Origin: a virus
Lineage: Duplodnaviria; Heunggongvirae; Uroviricota; Caudoviricetes
Direction: 5' to 3' (one strand)
Virus record (IMG/VR): IMGVR_UViG_3300017565_000001
Coordinates: 141,741-205,740 of that record
Length of the DNA stretch: 64,000 bases
This document shows, piece by piece, positions 25,770 through 58,703 of this stretch (within the stretch, counting starts at the first letter, position 1; every line of letters begins with the position of its first letter). Under the pieces are notes generated by a model, which was not told the DNA's origin, ran no database searches, and saw only the letters and a program-made list of their open reading frames with translations. A program made the position numbers and the translations under genes.

Positions 25770-26480
25770 GTTGACGTTGCCAGATCACAGGTGTAGACTT
25801 GTTTGTGTTGGATGTGCAGCAACAAACGCACTGAAAACAAAGAGTTTGCTTGGAAACGTTGATGGATATCACTTCGTAACGGGAAGTGAAAGGGTGAAGG
25901 GCTTTGCTTGCCAATTTGCCGCCTTACACAAAGATGTGAGGACCACCAAGCAAGACCCACGCACTGAGTGCCACCGTTAGGCAGAACCAAAGTTGATCGA
26001 CGTGGATCAATGTAGGCTGGTGTAAAGGGTTGGTAATGGAATGTGGAGTAAATCCGCTACCTTACAGCTTAGGGGATGAAAGTGGAGTGTAGTCCTCGAA
26101 GCCTGGTATGTTATGCATACCTATTGCGTGTGAATGTATTCCCGTTAATGACGGGAGCATGGAATGGTATCACACGGCAAGCAAACTTCTACTCAGGTAG
26201 TCGTACAAATCCATTTAAGGTGTTGTAGTGAAACGGCTTCGTTCTTATGGACGACCCACAAGTCGGGAGGTGTGGAAGAGTAGAATATAGTCCAACTGTA
26301 TTTTACTGAAGCTGCAACATGGCACTGGATACGCCACCAGTATAAAAAGGCAGCCGTGGTTGACTACATGGACGATTGGTGTACTCCAATCCTGTGTGGA
26401 TAAGTTGGTAAGGTCCTGGTGAGGAACAGAACCGTACGTCAACGAAAGGTCAACTGGTCTTGGGTGTAATCTCAGCCCTA
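25770..26480 (+). ncRNA. giant structured ncRNA, GOLLD-like
   Basis: ~700-nt purine-rich gap with many hairpins; GTGGATAAG (26396) and terminal GTGTAATCTCAGCC (26464) resemble the GOLLD 3' domain as I recall it; tRNA nearby. Confidence 0.6.
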
Positions 26481-26567
26481 GTTATTTTGAGCGAACAATG
26501 GTGTTCGCTCATTCCATTACCGCGGCGCGGTGTAAATACGATCTCTTTCCCAAGGATCTTATCAATC

Positions 26568-27158
26568 ATGAGTTATTCGACCCAGCAACTCGATTCACAT
26601 CAACTTCAGGAATACGCAGATCACCTCCTAAAGCTAGACGCTACGGACAGGTATCTGCGTTTCGGCCATCAGGCTACTGATGAACAGATTCAACATTATG
26701 TGGATTCACAATTCAGAAGCCGCCAAATGGTTATCGGAGCTTTCAACGAAAACCAAGAGCTAGTCGCCGCAGTTGAGTTGGTTTTCGAGACCTCAAAGTT
26801 CACTCGAACCAACAAGACTGTAGAGATTGGTCTGAGTGTTCTTCCCGAGCATCGTCGCCAAGGTATTGGCTCTGAATTGTTTAAACAAGCCGCCGCAATT
26901 GCACAAGGTCAAGGAGCTTCAACAATCTTCTGCCATTGCTTGTCTGAAAATGATTGCGTGAAACGAATGGCCGAGCGATCGGGCCTGAATATCAATGTGG
27001 CCCCCACCGATCAATCATCTGGCTTCCACTATCCTGATTTGATTGGTCGAGCAATGGCTATGTGGGACTACACCCAGGCTACCGCGTCGTCTATCTTCAA
27101 TTACGGATCAATGACGACTTTCCCAATCAAGGATCGCAAACAAGCCAAAGGTCAGTAA
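26568..27158 (+). CDS. GNAT family N-acetyltransferase
   Basis: EIGLSVLPEHRRQGIGSELF (motif A), CLSEN. Confidence 0.9.
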   Translation: MSYSTQQLDSHQLQEYADHLLKLDATDRYLRFGHQATDEQIQHYVDSQFRSRQMVIGAFNENQELVAAVELVFETSKFTRTNKTVEIGLSVLPEHRRQGIGSELFKQAAAIAQGQGASTIFCHCLSENDCVKRMAERSGLNINVAPTDQSSGFHYPDLIGRAMAMWDYTQATASSIFNYGSMTTFPIKDRKQAKGQ

Positions 27159-27551: not shown

Positions 27552-27627
27552 GCCCTAGTAGCTCAGGGGTAGAGCAGCCGCCTTGTAAGCGGCAGGTCGA
27601 CAGTTCAAATCTCGTCCTGGGGCACCA
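27552..27627 (+). tRNA. tRNA-Thr(TGT)
   Basis: cloverleaf, GCCGC-CTTGTAA-GCGGC anticodon arm, encoded CCA. Confidence 0.95.
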
Positions 27628-30357: not shown

Positions 30358-30420
30358 GCGTTCACCTAGCGAAAGCTAACAACCCTCGAAGCGTAATAGT
30401 TTCGGGGGTTTCGTGTTTTA
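30324..30420 (+). promoter_or_regulatory. attenuator 1: antiterminator 30324-30334/30380-30390 competing with terminator 30381-30392/30399-30410
   Basis: TTCGGGGGTTG pairs with CAACCCTCGAA (11 bp); AACCCTCGAAGC/GTTTCGGGGGTT (12 bp) followed by TCGTGTTTT. Confidence 0.8.
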
Positions 30421-30435
30421 GATGTTGAGATTTAC

Positions 30436-30522
30436 GGGTGGTAGGTGCGCTGGGCGCTAACTTGCCTCGAAAACAAGCCCCTCCAGTGATGGGGGATGGT
30501 TCGATTCCATTACTACCCGCCA
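30436..30522 (+). tRNA. tRNA-Ser(CGA), probably 8/4 acceptor/T-stem form
   Basis: GGGTGGTA/TACTACCC, long variable arm, G73, CCA. Confidence 0.8.
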
Positions 30523-30534
30523 AGAACGTTTCGT

Positions 30535-30619
30535 GTATCAGATGGTAAACTGGCTAAATCAGCTGTCTGTAAAACAGTCGCCTCCGGGCTTGTAGGTTCG
30601 ATTCCTACCTGATACACAA
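30535..30619 (+). tRNA. tRNA-Tyr(GTA)
   Basis: type II cloverleaf; ends ACAA (CCA not encoded). Confidence 0.9.
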
Positions 30620-30633
30620 AACGTTTTTGAAAT

Positions 30634-30718
30634 ATCCTGTGATGACGGCTGGGTACCGTCAGAAGACTTTCAATCTTCCCTGTTCCACAGTGGGGTTCGA
30701 TTCCCCCACAGGATACCA
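30634..30718 (+). tRNA. allo-tRNA-like species with TTC (Glu) anticodon, 8/4 fold, long variable arm
   Basis: ATCCTGTG/CACAGGAT; TGACGG/CCGTCA D-stem; GAAGA-CTTTCAA-TCTTC; CTGT/ACAG V-arm; GGGG/CCCC T-stem; CCA. Confidence 0.7.
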
Positions 30719-30727
30719 AGTTTTAAT

Positions 30728-30812
30728 GGGGATGCGGCTCAGATGGCGAGGGGCGGCTGACTGTAAATCAGTTCTTTCGGGTGAGTAGGTTCGAATCCTT
30801 CCATCCCCACCA
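30728..30812 (+). tRNA. tRNA-Tyr(GTA)
   Basis: cloverleaf with CCA. Confidence 0.95.
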
Positions 30813-30819
30813 AGTTTTT

Positions 30820-30895
30820 ACTCTGTTCGTCTATCGGTTAGGACGCTAGACTTTCAATCTGGAAAGACGGGTTCGACTCCCGTACAGAGTGCCAG
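30820..30895 (+). tRNA. tRNA-Glu(TTC)
   Basis: cloverleaf with CCA. Confidence 0.95.
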
Positions 30896-30905
30896 AATTA
30901 TTCCA

Positions 30906-30992
30906 GTCTTACTGATGAGCCCTAATGGGCGAAACAGTTGCAGGGAAAGATGGTGTTTCCGCCCCCATCAAGTATCTGTAGCTGTCTGAGAC
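30906..30992 (+). ncRNA. hammerhead ribozyme (type I); predicted cleavage after C30986
   Basis: stem I GTCTTA/TGAGAC, CTGATGA core, stem II GCCC/GGGC, GAAA, stem III CAGTTGCAG/CTGTAGCTG, GUC cleavage triplet. Confidence 0.9.
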
Positions 30993-31000
30993 ATGTTTGT

Positions 31001-31075
31001 ATTGCCGTTGACTTCTGGTGAGGTCTCCAGGCTTTCAACCTGGCTAGGCGAGTTCGATCCTCGTCGGCAATACAA
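31001..31075 (+). tRNA. tRNA-Glu(TTC)
   Basis: CCAGG-CTTTCAA-CCTGG; ends ACAA. Confidence 0.85.
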
Positions 31076-31086
31076 AGATGTTTCAT

Positions 31087-31183
31087 GTAGGGGATGTTCC
31101 GTAAGGCTGACGGTAAAATCGATAAAAGTGTGATGGGTGCTGCCCTAAACACCCCAGAGGTTCGAGTCCTCACCCCTACTCCA
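31087..31183 (+). ncRNA. tRNA-like RNA without a canonical anticodon loop
   Basis: GTAGGGG/CCCCTAC stem, T-arm GAGG-TTCGAGT-CCTC, TCCA end. Confidence 0.6.
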
Positions 31184-31192
31184 AGTTTTAAT

Positions 31193-31280
31193 GGGTTCCT
31201 TTCCCGCCGGCGGTCTGTAAAACCGTTGCCTAATAAGGTGGGTTGGTTGGCGTGAGGTTCGAAGCCTCGGGAACCCACCA
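31193..31280 (+). tRNA. non-canonical tRNA-Tyr(GTA)-like RNA lacking a normal D-arm
   Basis: GGGTTCC/GGAACCC, GCGGT-CTGTAAA-ACCGT, T-arm, CCA; only 10 nt between acceptor and anticodon arm. Confidence 0.7.
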
Positions 31281-31289
31281 AGTTTTAAT

Positions 31290-31364
31290 GCACCGTTCGT
31301 CTATCGGTTAGGACATCGCCCTTTCAAGGCGGCAAGATGGGTTCGATTCCCATACGGTGTGCCA
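31290..31364 (+). tRNA. tRNA-Glu(TTC)
   Basis: cloverleaf with CCA. Confidence 0.95.
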
Positions 31365-31421
31365 GTTGACCTCGTATTCATTTGATGCCATAATGGTAAG
31401 AATGTAAACGAGGAGAACGAT

Positions 31422-31646
31422 ATGGCTGATCGCGTGACCCTTCGGGGTAAGCTGATTGATGGGCAGTATGATCGCGAAATCGCGGATGCTGTTATTCAAG
31501 AAGCACGCAAGACGGTTGATGTCCCAACCCAGAACATTTACGTTTGTGGGTCCTGGGGTGGATACGTCACTATCAGTTGTAATGTACAAGGATTTTGTGA
31601 TGCCCTAGTTGTCGCTGCCCGGAACATGGGGCTTGACGTTCAATAA
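31422..31646 (+). CDS. hypothetical protein within tRNA array
   Basis: GAGGAG RBS, own promoter-like TTGAC..CATAAT. Confidence 0.7.
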   Translation: MADRVTLRGKLIDGQYDREIADAVIQEARKTVDVPTQNIYVCGSWGGYVTISCNVQGFCDALVVAARNMGLDVQ

Positions 31647-31655
31647 GGAGGCAAC

Positions 31656-31799
31656 ATGAGAGCATTTGGTAGTGTTCGTGGTAAATACTGTGAGTGGAGA
31701 TTCACTGGTAGATATTACGGACGAAGCAGAATTTTCAATGCGGGGAAACTTGAAATCAAGTCCCGCAAACGTGGACGGAAATGGTCCACAGATGATTGA
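31656..31799 (+). CDS. small basic peptide (47 aa)
   Basis: AAGGAGG RBS; MRAFGSVRGK... Confidence 0.45.
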   Translation: MRAFGSVRGKYCEWRFTGRYYGRSRIFNAGKLEIKSRKRGRKWSTDD

Positions 31800-31807
31800 C
31801 CGATTAC

Positions 31808-31881
31808 GCGGGTAAGCTCGAGGTGAGTCGCCGGCCTTCCAAGCCGCGCAGAGTTGGGTTCGATTCCCACTATCCGCTCCA
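31808..31881 (+). tRNA. tRNA-Gly(TCC)
   Basis: cloverleaf, U73, CCA. Confidence 0.9.
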
Positions 31882-31999
31882 GTTTTGAATGTGAGAGAAA
31901 TCTCCTGGCTAGTCACAAGGGAACGACAGAATCGGGGCAACGAGCCTTAACCTTGCCCGAAGAACGGAAATATCCGTCTACGTCGTTACGTTCGTTTTT

Positions 32000-32074
32000 G
32001 CAGGATTAATTCAGTGGTAGAATGTCTGCTTGCCAAGCAGAATGTCATCGGTTCGAATCCGATATCCTGCTCCA
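32000..32074 (+). tRNA. tRNA-Gly(GCC)
   Basis: cloverleaf, CCA. Confidence 0.95.
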
Positions 32075-32082
32075 AGTTTTAT

Positions 32083-32158
32083 GCGTGGGTAGCTCAGTTG
32101 GTAGAGTACCTGGTTGCCAACCAGGACGTCGCGGGTTCGAACCCCGTCCCACGCTCCA
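32083..32158 (+). tRNA. tRNA-Gly(GCC)
   Basis: cloverleaf, CCA. Confidence 0.95.
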
Positions 32159-32166
32159 GTTTACAT

Positions 32167-32257
32167 GTTCCGGTGGCCGAGTTGGCTTAGGCAGCGGTCT
32201 GCAAAACCGTTAGCGGGAGAAATCCCCACGCAGGTTCGAATCCTGTTCGGAACTCCA
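32167..32257 (+). tRNA. tRNA-Cys(GCA) with long variable arm
   Basis: GCGGT-CTGCAAA-ACCGT, GGGA-GAAA-TCCC V-arm, U73, CCA. Confidence 0.85.
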
Positions 32258-32330
32258 AGATGCTTGACTTTGATGCCATATGAACATAACATATGGCATC
32301 AATTGTTTTGAGCCACTGACAAGGAATCCA

Positions 32331-39319: not shown

Positions 39320-39406
39320 CGCGGGCTGGTGTAATGCTAACACGCGGGGCTCATAACCCCGAGACATCTAATGCTCGTCCTGGTTCAAGTCCAGGGCCCG
39401 CTTCAA
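39320..39406 (+). tRNA. initiator-like tRNA-Met(CAT) with long variable region
   Basis: C1 mismatch, GGG/CCC pairs in the anticodon stem, 17-nt extra arm; no encoded CCA. Confidence 0.7.
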
Positions 39407-40623: not shown

Positions 40624-40929
40624 ATGCCCTCATCCACTGTTGCAAACTGGGCTTTAGTTTTGCCGCAACCTTATAACCACCTTATGTGCGACTGTACCAT
40701 TTGCTCACGTCATAAACGAATGAACGAAATCATGTCAAAGCTAGACCCAGAGGACCGGGAATGGCTGCAAACAATGATGGGATATTTGCTTGACATTGAA
40801 GCAGATGTGGAGTATCATAAGGCTATACTTAATGGCGCTTTGCCAAGCTCAGAAGAAATTTTGAAGAAAGCTCTTCATAAGCTTTACGCTATACGAGCAA
40901 ACAACGATCCTGTGGTCCGAGAGGCTTAG
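40624..40929 (+). CDS. hypothetical protein (likely start MCDCTIC at ~40684)
   Basis: ORF track; 3' end overlaps tRNA-Cys. Confidence 0.5.
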   Translation: MPSSTVANWALVLPQPYNHLMCDCTICSRHKRMNEIMSKLDPEDREWLQTMMGYLLDIEADVEYHKAILNGALPSSEEILKKALHKLYAIRANNDPVVREA

Positions 40930-40981
40930 GCGGCTGGCTGCAACCCAGCACACGGTGGTTCGAATCCACCCGGGATCTCCA
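40906..40981 (+). tRNA. tRNA-Cys(GCA)
   Basis: cloverleaf, U73, CCA. Confidence 0.9.
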
Positions 40982-41515: not shown

Positions 41516-42003
41516 GTCAACATCTCTTTAAGGACTAGATGCGCGAAGCCTGTACTTGGCACGTTCTTAATAATCGTCCAAGTAGAATTGTTATTGGACC
41601 CTTCGATTGAAATACTCGTTGGTTGTCTACCAAAGTCGGTTGGGCACGCAATCTTCACACTGCCGATAACTTTGGATGCAGTCAGATCAACGGACCACCA
41701 GCATGATCTATTCGCATTGGGGGAATTGTTGGCGGCGCCACACCACATGCTTGTAGTCGCTGATGATATGACGCCGTCAATGGGCCCAACTATTCTGTAT
41801 GTTGCGTCATAAACGCTTGATGCGAAACATGGTGTGGTACCCAAAACACACAAATTGGATCCAGTGGTAGTGGTGCGTATTTCCACTTCACTAATAGTAG
41901 GGTACTGTCCACCAGCAAGTAATACGATTCGAACGTATCGATAAGAATTTGCCGGAGGGGCCGGCCGTTTACTCGCCAGCAAAAGTCTTTGAGAAATCGT
42001 CAT
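41512..42003 (-). CDS. discoidin / F5-8 type C domain protein (paralog)
   Basis: YRYVRI ... WWSVDL ... IEGSNNNSTWT. Confidence 0.75.
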   Translation of the reverse strand: MTISQRLLLASKRPAPPANSYRYVRIVLLAGGQYPTISEVEIRTTTTGSNLCVLGTTPCFASSVYDATYRIVGPIDGVISSATTSMWCGAANNSPNANRSCWWSVDLTASKVIGSVKIACPTDFGRQPTSISIEGSNNNSTWTIIKNVPSTGFAHLVLKEMLT

Positions 42004-42098
42004 AACGCTATAGTTGACCGTTCGATATCAAAATTGTAGTTTAATATTTATGGTGGCGCACCATACTAAATAAAATGCACACATAATTAGGCGCAAAC

Positions 42099-52522: not shown

Positions 52523-53387
52523 AGTACGGATTTTGATTGTGGGTGAGCGCGGCCTTGTTGCCCAACGACTTCGCGAACGGTTGGAAAAGGATGACTTTGA
52601 GGTCCAGGTCATCTCCACCGACGAAGCCCTTACTGGAAACCTGCAGGGCAGCGTAAACGGTAAGGATGTAGTCGTATTGTGTGGTCAAGATTTCGTGAGT
52701 TCTCAAGTCATGGATCGTCTCCCAGATGGAGTGCGAGTCCTAGATGTGAGTCCCACATTTCGCAACTATCCGTCATGGGTGTACGGACTGCCCGAACTAC
52801 ATGACGGGTATGATAAAATCCGTCATGCTACACGAGTGGCCAATCCTGGATGCTTTGCCACTGCGGCCATCCTTGCCTTGGAACCACCAACAAAAGGTCG
52901 CATGATACCCAGGTATACCCACGTGTATCTGGACGCGACCGCTGGATATTCTTCTGGTGGGACCAAGCTCATAAACCAGGTTACTGATGGACTCATGGTG
53001 AACGAAACCATGTTCAGTCTGAATCGAGAACACCGACACGTTCAGGAAATCAAAACACACTCAGGCGCAAGCGGTCCAGTGATTTTTCACCCCAAGGTCG
53101 ATCCGTTGACTTTCAGTGGGACTCGTATGGTGGTGAGCATCCCCAACGTTCGAGCAGACGAACTCAGAGCCTTGTACCGTGAAGTGTATCAGGGCACTGA
53201 AATTATTGTCCTTGACGACAATCCGTCCAGCATCAAGGTGAACGACTGGGCGGACAAGGAGGGGGCATGTTTGCGGGTGTATGAAAACGAAATAGGATCA
53301 ACCGTCATATGCACCCTAGACAACCTGTTGAAGGGTGCGGTGAGTGCAGCAGTGCGCAATGTCACTTTGATGACGCAGAAAGCCTAA
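52515..53387 (+). CDS. argC: N-acetyl-gamma-glutamyl-phosphate reductase
   Basis: G..GLV Rossmann start, DVS..FR...WVYGLPEL, RVANPGCFAT, GYSSGG, LDNLLKGA. Confidence 0.85.
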   Translation: MSEVRILIVGERGLVAQRLRERLEKDDFEVQVISTDEALTGNLQGSVNGKDVVVLCGQDFVSSQVMDRLPDGVRVLDVSPTFRNYPSWVYGLPELHDGYDKIRHATRVANPGCFATAAILALEPPTKGRMIPRYTHVYLDATAGYSSGGTKLINQVTDGLMVNETMFSLNREHRHVQEIKTHSGASGPVIFHPKVDPLTFSGTRMVVSIPNVRADELRALYREVYQGTEIIVLDDNPSSIKVNDWADKEGACLRVYENEIGSTVICTLDNLLKGAVSAAVRNVTLMTQKA

Positions 53388-57212: not shown

Positions 57213-57655
57213 TGAGTGAAATTGTGACCCTCAAGCAATTCAAATATCGCAGTCAGACTATCAAGTGGTCCTTTTGGTTAGTCATTGGCTATTGCGCATG
57301 GTTTTTCTTATGCGAGGGAATGGATTATCTGGTCGCAAAAGGTGGCAATCCCAGTAGTTCGTATACAAGTGACATTCACGTCACTCCCGTTACTGTTGAA
57401 TCAAACAATGGATGTACTGGCGGTAAGGGATCTTCATGCAATTACACGATTGCATGGTCGAATGGTGAACGCTATTACATTCAGAGCTCGAACGCTTACG
57501 CTGTCGGCCAAACTATCTACCATTCGGCATGGACCAACGCTGACGGGAAAACTTTCTATCGATATAGCTGGTCACCCGCCAAGAATGAAACGCCCCCAAC
57601 CTGGCTGTCAAAATATTTCATGAAGGACAACAGTGTCAAGCGCAACAAAGACTAA
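57212..57655 (+). CDS. membrane-anchored exported protein
   Basis: N-terminal TM helix, Cys pair. Confidence 0.6.
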   Translation: MSEIVTLKQFKYRSQTIKWSFWLVIGYCAWFFLCEGMDYLVAKGGNPSSSYTSDIHVTPVTVESNNGCTGGKGSSCNYTIAWSNGERYYIQSSNAYAVGQTIYHSAWTNADGKTFYRYSWSPAKNETPPTWLSKYFMKDNSVKRNKD

Positions 57656-57917
57656 GGAAAAGAAGCCCAAAGTTAAGGCAAGTGACAGTGCCAAAGCGTA
57701 CACCTACAACTTGCCTTCTGGTCCTCTACCTGCAAGGGATTTCTTTCGATCAATCATTGCTGAGGTTCCTGAGGAGAAGATTCTGCAATACGACCATGAA
57801 AACGGGCATATCACTCGTGAAGCGCTTCTTCAGTCGATTGATGATGACACAGAATTGGCAAAACGATTCATCACCGACATGATGCGAATCACTCGTGACA
57901 TGATGATTTACCGATAA
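57633..57917 (+). CDS. hypothetical protein
   Basis: AAGGA RBS, GTG start. Confidence 0.55.
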   Translation: MSSATKTKEKKPKVKASDSAKAYTYNLPSGPLPARDFFRSIIAEVPEEKILQYDHENGHITREALLQSIDDDTELAKRFITDMMRITRDMMIYR

Positions 57918-57987
57918 CCAGGTTCCCTTGATCCCCAGTTGCCATTCCTTTAGATTGACTGGTAACTTATCTTCATGTTGATAAACC

Positions 57988-58359
57988 GTGAACATTCTGT
58001 CCAAAATAATTAAATTCTTCCAGACACTCACTGCACCGTTAAAAAATCAGCCCATTGAAAAATGGCTGCTGGTGCGAACGTATGTGGTGGATGTTACCGT
58101 CACCCGCTCACCAGAAACAGACAGAGTAGGTGAAACTGGATTCGCGTATGCTTACATGTTTGAATCCGAATCTGGTAAGCGGCGAGTTGAATTTGGATGC
58201 AGTCTTTCTGGCTTTGATGCCGAGACATCATTCAAGAAATTGCGAGACTGGGCCGAACATGTTTATCCATGGGTGAATGGTCGGTATTTGGCCAATACGC
58301 CAACTTATTCCGAAGCTGAAAGCTTGGATGTTGCGGCAAGGCTCAAGGATTGTTCATGA
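57988..58359 (+). CDS. hypothetical protein, paralog B1
   Basis: FESESGKRRVE ... YPWVNGRY...P.Y. Confidence 0.7.
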   Translation: MNILSKIIKFFQTLTAPLKNQPIEKWLLVRTYVVDVTVTRSPETDRVGETGFAYAYMFESESGKRRVEFGCSLSGFDAETSFKKLRDWAEHVYPWVNGRYLANTPTYSEAESLDVAARLKDCS

Positions 58360-58703
58360 AGACACTTCAAACATGGTTCAAAAATCTGTTCACCCGCAAG
58401 CGTGAATACCTGGTACATACCCTTGAACTGACTATCACAATCAATTACGTGAATCAGTTCAAAGAAGTCAGTTATACGGAAAACGACGTAATGTTTCGCA
58501 TCCACTTGTTTGAATCAAACAAAGGCAAGCGACGTTATGAAGTTTTCTGTACCAGTAGTCGTTGTGATGCTCAGGGAATCGTAAAACGTCAGACTGAGTT
58601 CCACGATATTGTATATCCATGGCTTCATGGGCGATATGTTGAAGGTATCCCTCATTACACACAAGTCGCAGCAGAAGACCTCATGAAAAAGTTGGGTGAA
58701 TAA
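58356..58703 (+). CDS. hypothetical protein, paralog B2
   Basis: FESNKGKRRYE ... YPWLHGRY..IP.Y. Confidence 0.7.
   Translation: MKTLQTWFKNLFTRKREYLVHTLELTITINYVNQFKEVSYTENDVMFRIHLFESNKGKRRYEVFCTSSRCDAQGIVKRQTEFHDIVYPWLHGRYVEGIPHYTQVAAEDLMKKLGE

Follow-up and report, generated by a model that had tools for sequence, protein, structure and literature searches.

An 8/4, long-armed tRNA with a glutamate anticodon, conserved in huge phages: a candidate second form of tRNA-Glu

A phage tRNA gene of 85 nucleotides with an encoded CCA, located at 30634-30718 (+) of the window (the whole stretch of DNA analysed, 64,000 nucleotides) and hereafter called X, combines the glutamate anticodon UUC with a body that is foreign to tRNA-Glu. 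We favour, with a probability of roughly 0.55, the reading that X is a second, reshaped version of tRNA-Glu, with an 8/4 acceptor/T split and a long variable arm, that would be charged by the GluRS of the host and would possibly evade a host factor. The family to which X belongs is real and conserved, and it is known from uncultured, mostly huge phages only. To judge from its sequence, X most likely still carries glutamate, with no rewriting of the code. The "cleavage-resistant Glu decoder", which an earlier note on this DNA had listed as one alternative among several, is still our best guess for its role.

Results

The gene and its operon

The window is part of a single contig of 424,529 bp with 47.7% G+C, which IMG/VR classes as a complete virus with direct terminal repeats. 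With 56 tRNA genes and a tmRNA by ARAGORN, this genome (G000) is that of a huge phage; the program calls a tRNA with the anticodon ttc at 30634-30718. X is the sole unambiguous 8/4 species among the 56 tRNAs. It lies within a tRNA operon, flanked by spacers of 16 and 9 nt, and the operon is bracketed by terminator-like hairpins at 30381-30410 upstream and 32270-32302 downstream. The features are as follows.

30436..32257 (+): tRNA operon with X, in the order Ser(CGA), Tyr, X, Tyr, Glu, ..., Glu, Gly, Gly, Cys
30634..30718 (+): X, (8/4) long-armed tRNA(UUC), from ARAGORN, the MFE fold and 28 homologues with covariation
30634..30641 (+): acceptor 5' strand of X, 8 nt, partner 30707-30714; seven of the eight pairs covary, the eighth is G:C in 28/29
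30642..30643 (+): linker A, U; in X the U is pairable with A at 30661, a pair found in only 18/29 and without covariation
30644..30660 (+): D arm, 5-bp stem 30644-30648/30656-30660 and a 7-nt loop with the elbow GG; paired in 100% of the family
30662..30678 (+): anticodon arm, 5-bp stem and loop CUUUCAA, with UUC at 30669-30671 and A37 at 30672; all five pairs covary
30679..30691 (+): variable region, 13 nt: C, a 4-bp hairpin 30680-30683/30687-30690 with the loop UCC, U
30692..30706 (+): T arm, 4-bp GGGG/CCCC and 7-nt loop UUCGAUU; 100% paired in the family
30707..30718 (+): 3' end, with acceptor 3' strand 30707-30714, discriminator A73 at 30715 and CCA at 30716-30718
30820..30894 (+): canonical 7/5 tRNA-Glu(UUC), 75 nt, in the operon of X; Rfam tRNA model 57.7 bits, ARAGORN
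31290..31364 (+): second canonical 7/5 tRNA-Glu(UUC), 75 nt; Rfam tRNA model 55 bits, ARAGORN

Other genes of this region are of note in their own right. The tRNA-Ser(CGA) that opens the operon (30436-30522 (+), 87 nt) can be drawn as 8/4, with A8:U65, or as 7/5, with G49.U65; in Rfam it scores best with the tRNA-Sec model rather than the tRNA model, at 33.2 bits and thus under the cut-off of 47. Possibly it belongs to the (8/4) phage tRNA-Ser species of Mukai et al. 2017. At the other end of the operon, a 91-nt tRNA (32167-32257 (+)) carries the anticodon GCA, for Cys, together with U73 and a variable arm folded as a long hairpin; a normal tRNA-Cys of 76 nt is located at 40906-40981 of the window. 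An 85-nt tRNA-like gene at 39320-39404 (+) has a CAT anticodon and a variable region enlarged by a long insertion; CCA is not encoded. Among ten ORFs near X, the Pfam search returned a weak VWA match and a GNAT-family acetyltransferase, and nothing related to tRNA. The acetyltransferase ORF (26460-27158 (+), PF00583, E = 4e-13) ends about 400 nt upstream of a tRNA-Thr at 27552. Elsewhere in G000, outside the window, are a tRNA with the amber-suppressor anticodon CUA (53129-53203) and the tmRNA gene (41648-42040). TAG terminates only 21 of the 330 long ORFs of this phage, and a CUA tRNA also stands two genes ahead of the 8/4 Glu gene in the array L113.

The 8/4 layout is conserved in 29 sequences

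In the minimum free energy fold of X, the acceptor stem has 8 bp and the D stem 6 bp around a 7-nt loop; the anticodon stem, of 5 bp, closes the loop CUUUCAA, the variable arm and the T stem have 4 bp each, and the 3' end is A73-CCA. The fold reaches -30.7 kcal/mol (z = -2.14), and among 200 shuffled sequences 7 fold equally well. Taken as a single sequence the fold is weakly better than chance, and its main support comes from the homologues. The eighth acceptor pair joins G8 to the nucleotide equivalent to C65 of a 7/5 tRNA, and unpairing the two costs about 3.3 kcal/mol. A 7/5 drawing of X would require U-C at 49:65; the U at 30691, just 5' of the T arm, stands opposite the C at 30707, where pairing is impossible. 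Neither the tRNA model nor the tRNA-Sec model (RF01852) of Rfam matched X, even at E <= 10.

The structure was tested in an alignment (A1) of 29 sequences, X and its 28 homologues. In this alignment 97% of the cells of the 8/4 structure are paired and 16 of the 25 pairs are altered on both sides; none of 500 shuffles was as good, and controls with the structure slid along the alignment all stayed below 50% pairing. Covariation was found in seven acceptor pairs, all five pairs of the anticodon stem, both outer pairs of the variable arm, one D pair and one T pair. This was the check on homologues that the earlier note had called for. The eighth acceptor pair, G8:C65, is present in 28/29, and the alternative 49:65 pair is mismatched in 28/29, on which counts the 7/5 layout was rejected for the family. 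G8:C65 is thus conserved and, being invariant as G:C in those 28, it offers no proof by covariation. The 8-bp acceptor and 4-bp T stem that had been claimed for X were borne out in the MFE fold and in these pair counts, and the outcome that was to overturn the claim, a 7/5 fold like that of the neighbouring copies, was not what the alignment gave. Against those neighbours, which are 7/5 with a 4-nt variable loop, the layout of X is indeed abnormal for tRNA-Glu.

The D arm had been described as a Sec-like stem of 6 bp. Six pairs do form in the fold of X itself. In the family, the sixth pair (U10:A26; 30643:30661 in X) is present in 18 sequences and broken in 11, with zero compensatory change, and was therefore rejected as a family trait. 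The D arm of the family consists instead of 5 bp with a 7-nt loop and no tetraloop, and is not Sec-like. Within it, A11:U24 is found in all 29 sequences, and the pair 13:22 is U.G in 21, G.U in 7 and G:C in X. The long variable arm is present in X, as a 4-bp hairpin in a region of 13 nt, and its outer pairs covary across the family, where the region measures 10-16 nt, the stem 2-4 bp (2 bp in five members) and the loop is often of the UUCG type. X retains every position that is invariant in the family, and all of its stems are perfectly paired.

A family known from uncultured phages

A first scan of IMG/VR, with a UUC loop and a T loop at long-arm spacing, gave 41 long UUC tRNAs, four of them evident relatives of X. 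The main scan used D-arm and T-loop patterns with the anticodon left free, and covered IMG/VR, the contigs of metagenomes and, for GTDB, a single genome of each species; random coding matches were removed before the homologues were counted. It yielded 28 distinct homologues, all of them on phage or metagenome contigs, seven of which are 257-385 kb long. No intact homologue was present in the 185,579 bacterial and archaeal reference genomes (one per GTDB species). The sole match among these was a degenerate copy on a 10-kb contig of 1x coverage, binned with a Pirellula MAG; with 18 tRNAs in 8 kb, this contig looks like a phage-type array that was mis-binned. A blastn search of X against 50,697 records of cultured phages returned T-arm matches of 26-30 nt only, and no homologue. 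Global alignment of X to the other 55 tRNAs of its own phage revealed no close paralogue. The best match was the neighbouring tRNA-Glu, with a shared stretch of 13 nt in the anticodon arm, and the notion that X arose recently as a chimera, with the anticodon arm of a Glu tRNA on a neighbouring Tyr gene, was dropped after this alignment.

Of 27 loci, 15 have an ordinary tRNA-Glu near the 8/4 gene, as does each of the four complete genomes. In two loci the 8/4 gene is the only Glu tRNA in the available stretch, namely L116, alongside 21 other tRNAs, and L153, alongside 18 on the entire contig of 10 kb. Degenerate copies of the family occur at L117:2013-2097 (+), L151:696-779 (-) and L219:5537-5620 (+), where the acceptor stems are broken or the T-stem C is lost; the 8/4 Glu gene can therefore decay in some lineages.

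Such copies exist, the Rfam tRNA model misses X and the z of its fold is only -2.14, all of which would be expected if X were itself a decaying duplicate or a chance fold without function. The perfectly paired stems of X, the invariant positions that it keeps and the covariation across the whole family contradict that explanation, which we regard as close to refuted already.

The scans also revealed tRNAs outside the family. A second and larger viral class of UUC tRNAs, distinct from the 8/4 family, is 7/5 and has A73, a D arm that is unmistakably of the Glu type and a long variable arm, which can reach about 25 nt (L001, L007, L008, L014, L017, L038, L050, L057, L059, L062, L072, L079, L098, L103 and L106). 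Two chance matches to the patterns, L157:941-1024 (+) and L048:3766-3855 (-), are genes of the true allo-tRNA type, with a UAU anticodon, the 8/4 split and a Sec-like D stem of 6 bp with a tetraloop.

Identity marks point to glutamate

The anticodon is UUC in 29/29 members of the family. As these were collected with patterns blind to the anticodon, it appears to be under selection. The anticodon loop reads CUUUCAA in 28 of them and CUUUCAC in one, the change being at nt 38. Outside the family, the nearest D arms occur in the canonical tRNA-Glu genes, 75 nt long, that share its arrays. The acceptor end gave a similar picture: U72 is found in 69% of the family, with A:U/A73 the commonest arrangement and some G:C/U73, and in 76% of the canonical Glu tRNAs of the same loci, which show a like mixture; among Ser and Tyr tRNAs U72 is at 0%. 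When the anticodon was masked, the Glu isotype profile came first for X and in 11 of 27 members, at scores of 10-25 bits and with small margins; in the other 16 of 27 the first place went to Leu, Arg, Trp or Tyr (Leu or Tyr in 8 of 27). This ranking lends weak support to a Glu identity.

The earlier note had suggested that A73 and the long arm would suit recognition of the LeuRS or TyrRS type. Leu and Tyr identity need A73, Ser identity prefers G73, and TyrRS needs G34. The discriminator of the family is A in about 19 members, U in 7-8 and G in 2, and A73 is thus not a fixed identity mark; the stem of the arm is short, and G34 is missing. These observations do not support the suggestion. The variable discriminator fits GluRS, as this enzyme does not require N73 (PMC9976931).

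We considered in this light the proposal of an allo-tRNA-like missense suppressor, in which Leu, Ser or Tyr would be loaded onto X by way of the long arm and A73, and inserted at GAA and GAG. Allo-tRNAs of the 8/4 kind with sense anticodons do insert Ser or Ala in E. coli, as the main text of Mukai et al. 2017 describes (PMC5389517), X does have A73 and an extra arm, and Leu or Tyr profiles do come first in those 8 of 27 members. However, the anticodon of the X family is invariant, unlike that of the allo-tRNAs, and the discriminator varies where Leu and Tyr would call for A73 and Ser for G73. The arm has a short stem of 2-4 bp, the G34 required by TyrRS is absent, and G3:U70 is found in none of the 29 members by the pair counts of A1. 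The D arm is not Sec-like, the tRNA-Sec model has no match, and the profile of the acceptor end is unlike that of Ser or Tyr tRNAs. Misreading the commonest Glu codon of the phage across its proteome would also be costly. We consider this proposal improbable. A variant in which the family misreads GAA and GAG deliberately, the 8/4 body and the arm diverting it to a synthetase other than GluRS or to a phage factor, such that a residue other than Glu is inserted or host proteins are poisoned, strikes us as very improbable.

The determinants within the body of the tRNA are a different matter. In the body of E. coli tRNA-Glu, U11:A24, U13.G22:A46 and the lack of nt 47 are the major identity elements (PMC9976931). 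X has none of the three, since it carries A11:U24, G13:C22 and a hairpin, whereas both canonical neighbours satisfy all of them (at 30820-30894, U11:A24, U13.G22 and a 4-nt variable loop). The E. coli Glu set in the anticodon loop, U34 U35 C36 A37, is present in X and invariant in the family. A11:U24 is also found in several canonical phage Glu tRNAs of related arrays. A GluRS like that of E. coli might, given the lack of U11:A24, of U13.G22:A46 and of a short loop, charge X poorly.

Long arms on other tRNAs of the same arrays

The arrays that contain homologues of X hold other tRNAs with long variable arms: Asn in 11/24, Ile in 5/20, Lys in 4/31, Gln in 4/26 and Trp in 3/18 cases, as well as Asp and Pro. 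Examples are L115:4696-4782, L115:6750-6841, L116:4450-4539, L116:6884-6966, L002:4270-4454 and L153:2764-2848. No long-armed Ala, Arg, Gly, His, Phe, Thr or Val tRNA was seen in these arrays. All of the isotypes with an added arm have synthetases that read the anticodon. The acceptor ends of the long-armed Asn, Ile, Lys, Gln, Trp, Asp and Pro tRNAs are those typical of their isotypes, which argues that the arm is a recurrent add-on and not a switch of identity to Leu, Ser or Tyr.

Synthetases, RNA ligase and codon use

No Tyr-, Leu-, Ser- or Glu-type synthetase was found in the phage genome when it was searched with the Pfam families for GluRS/GlnRS, class IIa and the Ile/Leu/Val type. The one synthetase detected among the four Pfam families searched is of class Ib and proved to be a TrpRS (L238:1342-2343 (-), at about 269.4-270.4 kb of G000 and thus outside the window; 333 aa, TIGR00233, 294 bits), on which account it was rejected as a TyrRS partner of X. 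GluRS/GlnRS was not found in four related records either. With no such enzyme found in the phage or in these four records, that of the host must serve X. The demand for a reader with UUC is high in this phage, as GAA makes up 4.23% of the codons in its long ORFs and GAG 1.46%.

The phage encodes an RtcB RNA ligase (L239:1501-2616 (+), G000 57503-58618, outside the window; 411 bits). RtcB was found in two of the five records bearing the family, G000 and the related 385-kb G001, and not in G002-G004, and was rejected on this count as a tRNA-repair partner linked to the family. The T4 Rnl1 model had no match anywhere, controls included, and is uninformative.

A ligase of this kind would have a place in an explanation that we consider unlikely, namely that X does not decode. 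The Glu anticodon loop on a foreign body would act as a decoy, which, uncharged, soaks up or survives a host anticodon nuclease or a factor that binds tRNA-Glu. The invariance of the anticodon loop would follow from such a function, as would the lack in X of the three E. coli GluRS body determinants that its two neighbours have, and an ordinary tRNA-Glu is usually at hand (15/27 loci, 4/4 complete genomes). Yet an enzyme that reads the loop would need neither the covarying 8-bp acceptor nor the exact 12-bp stack nor the encoded CCA, all of which are kept. Moreover, the 8/4 gene is the sole Glu tRNA in the large arrays L116 and L153, and RtcB is missing from 3/5 family-bearing records. The covarying acceptor stem, the exact 12-bp stack and the encoded CCA together suggest a tRNA that is charged and used.

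Discussion

In bacteria, a long extra arm is by the textbook confined to Leu, Ser and Tyr (and Sec) tRNAs, and the acceptor and T stems of elongator tRNAs are split 7/5. The published 8/4 exceptions are Ser, His, Cys, Sec and the allo-tRNAs, as given in the main text of Mukai et al. 2017, which describes 8/4 and 9/3 allo-tRNAs, phage (8/4) tRNA-Ser and tRNA-His, and 8/4-like Cys and Sec species (PMC5389517). In the account given there, these 8/4 tRNAs function in translation in E. coli, and the allo-tRNA scaffold bears anticodons for 35 codons (PMC5389517). X shares with them the 12-bp stack split 8/4, the extra arm (of the Ser and allo forms) and the setting in a phage tRNA cluster, and differs in its Glu anticodon, its Glu-like D arm and the discriminator, which in the family is mostly A. 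We found no account of an 8/4 or long-armed tRNA-Glu in the literature; the main text of Mukai et al. 2017 names none, and its Figure 2 or supplement may contain an 8/4 UUC entry.

In contrast to the allo-tRNAs as described there, which have a long D stem with a tetraloop and 35 anticodons, the X family combines D and anticodon stems of 5 bp each with a 7-nt D loop and one anticodon. What X has of the published allo-tRNA features is the 8/4 split and a variable arm, the latter at the short end; it lacks the Sec-like D arm, G73 or U73 with a Ser identity or G3:U70 with an Ala identity, and the diversity of anticodons. With two features shared and three lacking, we do not file X as an allo-tRNA. 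The isotype-true (8/4) phage tRNAs may offer a nearer match, in that X has the 8/4 fold and the phage cluster; that its body agrees with Glu is supported by the D arm and the acceptor end, and weakly by the isotype profiles. From its sequence features, X would be closest to these tRNAs (the Ser and His species of Mukai et al. 2017), to which it would add an isotype and an extra arm.

Compared with the canonical tRNA-Glu(UUC), X shares the anticodon, A37, the loop CUUUCAA, G10, C12, G23 and C25 in the D stem, and the operon, as well as a G-rich T stem and the combination of N1:U72 and A73 that many phage Glu tRNAs have. It differs in the 8/4 split, the extra D pair, the hairpin in place of a 4-nt loop without nt 47, A11:U24, and G13:C22 in place of U13.G22. 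The X family would, in our proposal, descend from tRNA-Glu. A single G inserted after nt 7 could pair with nt 65, and the 12-bp acceptor/T stack would then be split 8/4 and not 7/5; one more pair in the D stem and a short hairpin replacing the 4-nt variable loop would be the further changes. X is predicted to be transcribed with its operon and processed. The host GluRS, presumably relying mainly on the anticodon and A37 and ignoring N73, would load it with glutamate, and the charged tRNA would read GAA and GAG. The idea of a second version comes from the 8/4 gene usually sitting beside an ordinary tRNA-Glu.

More speculatively, the reshaped body may be unusable by a host factor that acts on the body of normal tRNA-Glu, such as a defence nuclease. 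Evasion of this kind would keep GAA, the commonest Glu codon of the phage, readable. This motive is a conjecture, and we know of no bacterial defence nuclease that is specific for tRNA-Glu. A parallel may be drawn with phage T5, whose tRNA-Lys reportedly resists PARIS and whose tRNA-Tyr is said to resist the retron PtuAB. In both phages, an extra copy of a host-type tRNA has an altered shape or sequence. The T5 variants keep a normal cloverleaf with point changes, and the nucleases that they resist are known, whereas X has an altered architecture and no known matching nuclease, so that the analogy is one of mechanism only.

What is new here is a glutamate-reading 8/4 tRNA with an extra arm, and a family of such genes under selection in huge phages, usually beside a normal tRNA-Glu. 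If X is charged with glutamate, GluRS would tolerate the loss of what are supposed to be its major body determinants, and tRNA engineering would gain a compact scaffold of natural origin that may be orthogonal. Should X serve to escape a host factor, this would point to a defence or regulatory system, as yet undiscovered, that targets the body of tRNA-Glu. The X family and the long-armed Asn, Ile, Lys, Gln and Trp tRNAs that share its arrays suggest that the addition of a variable arm is a general strategy of phages.
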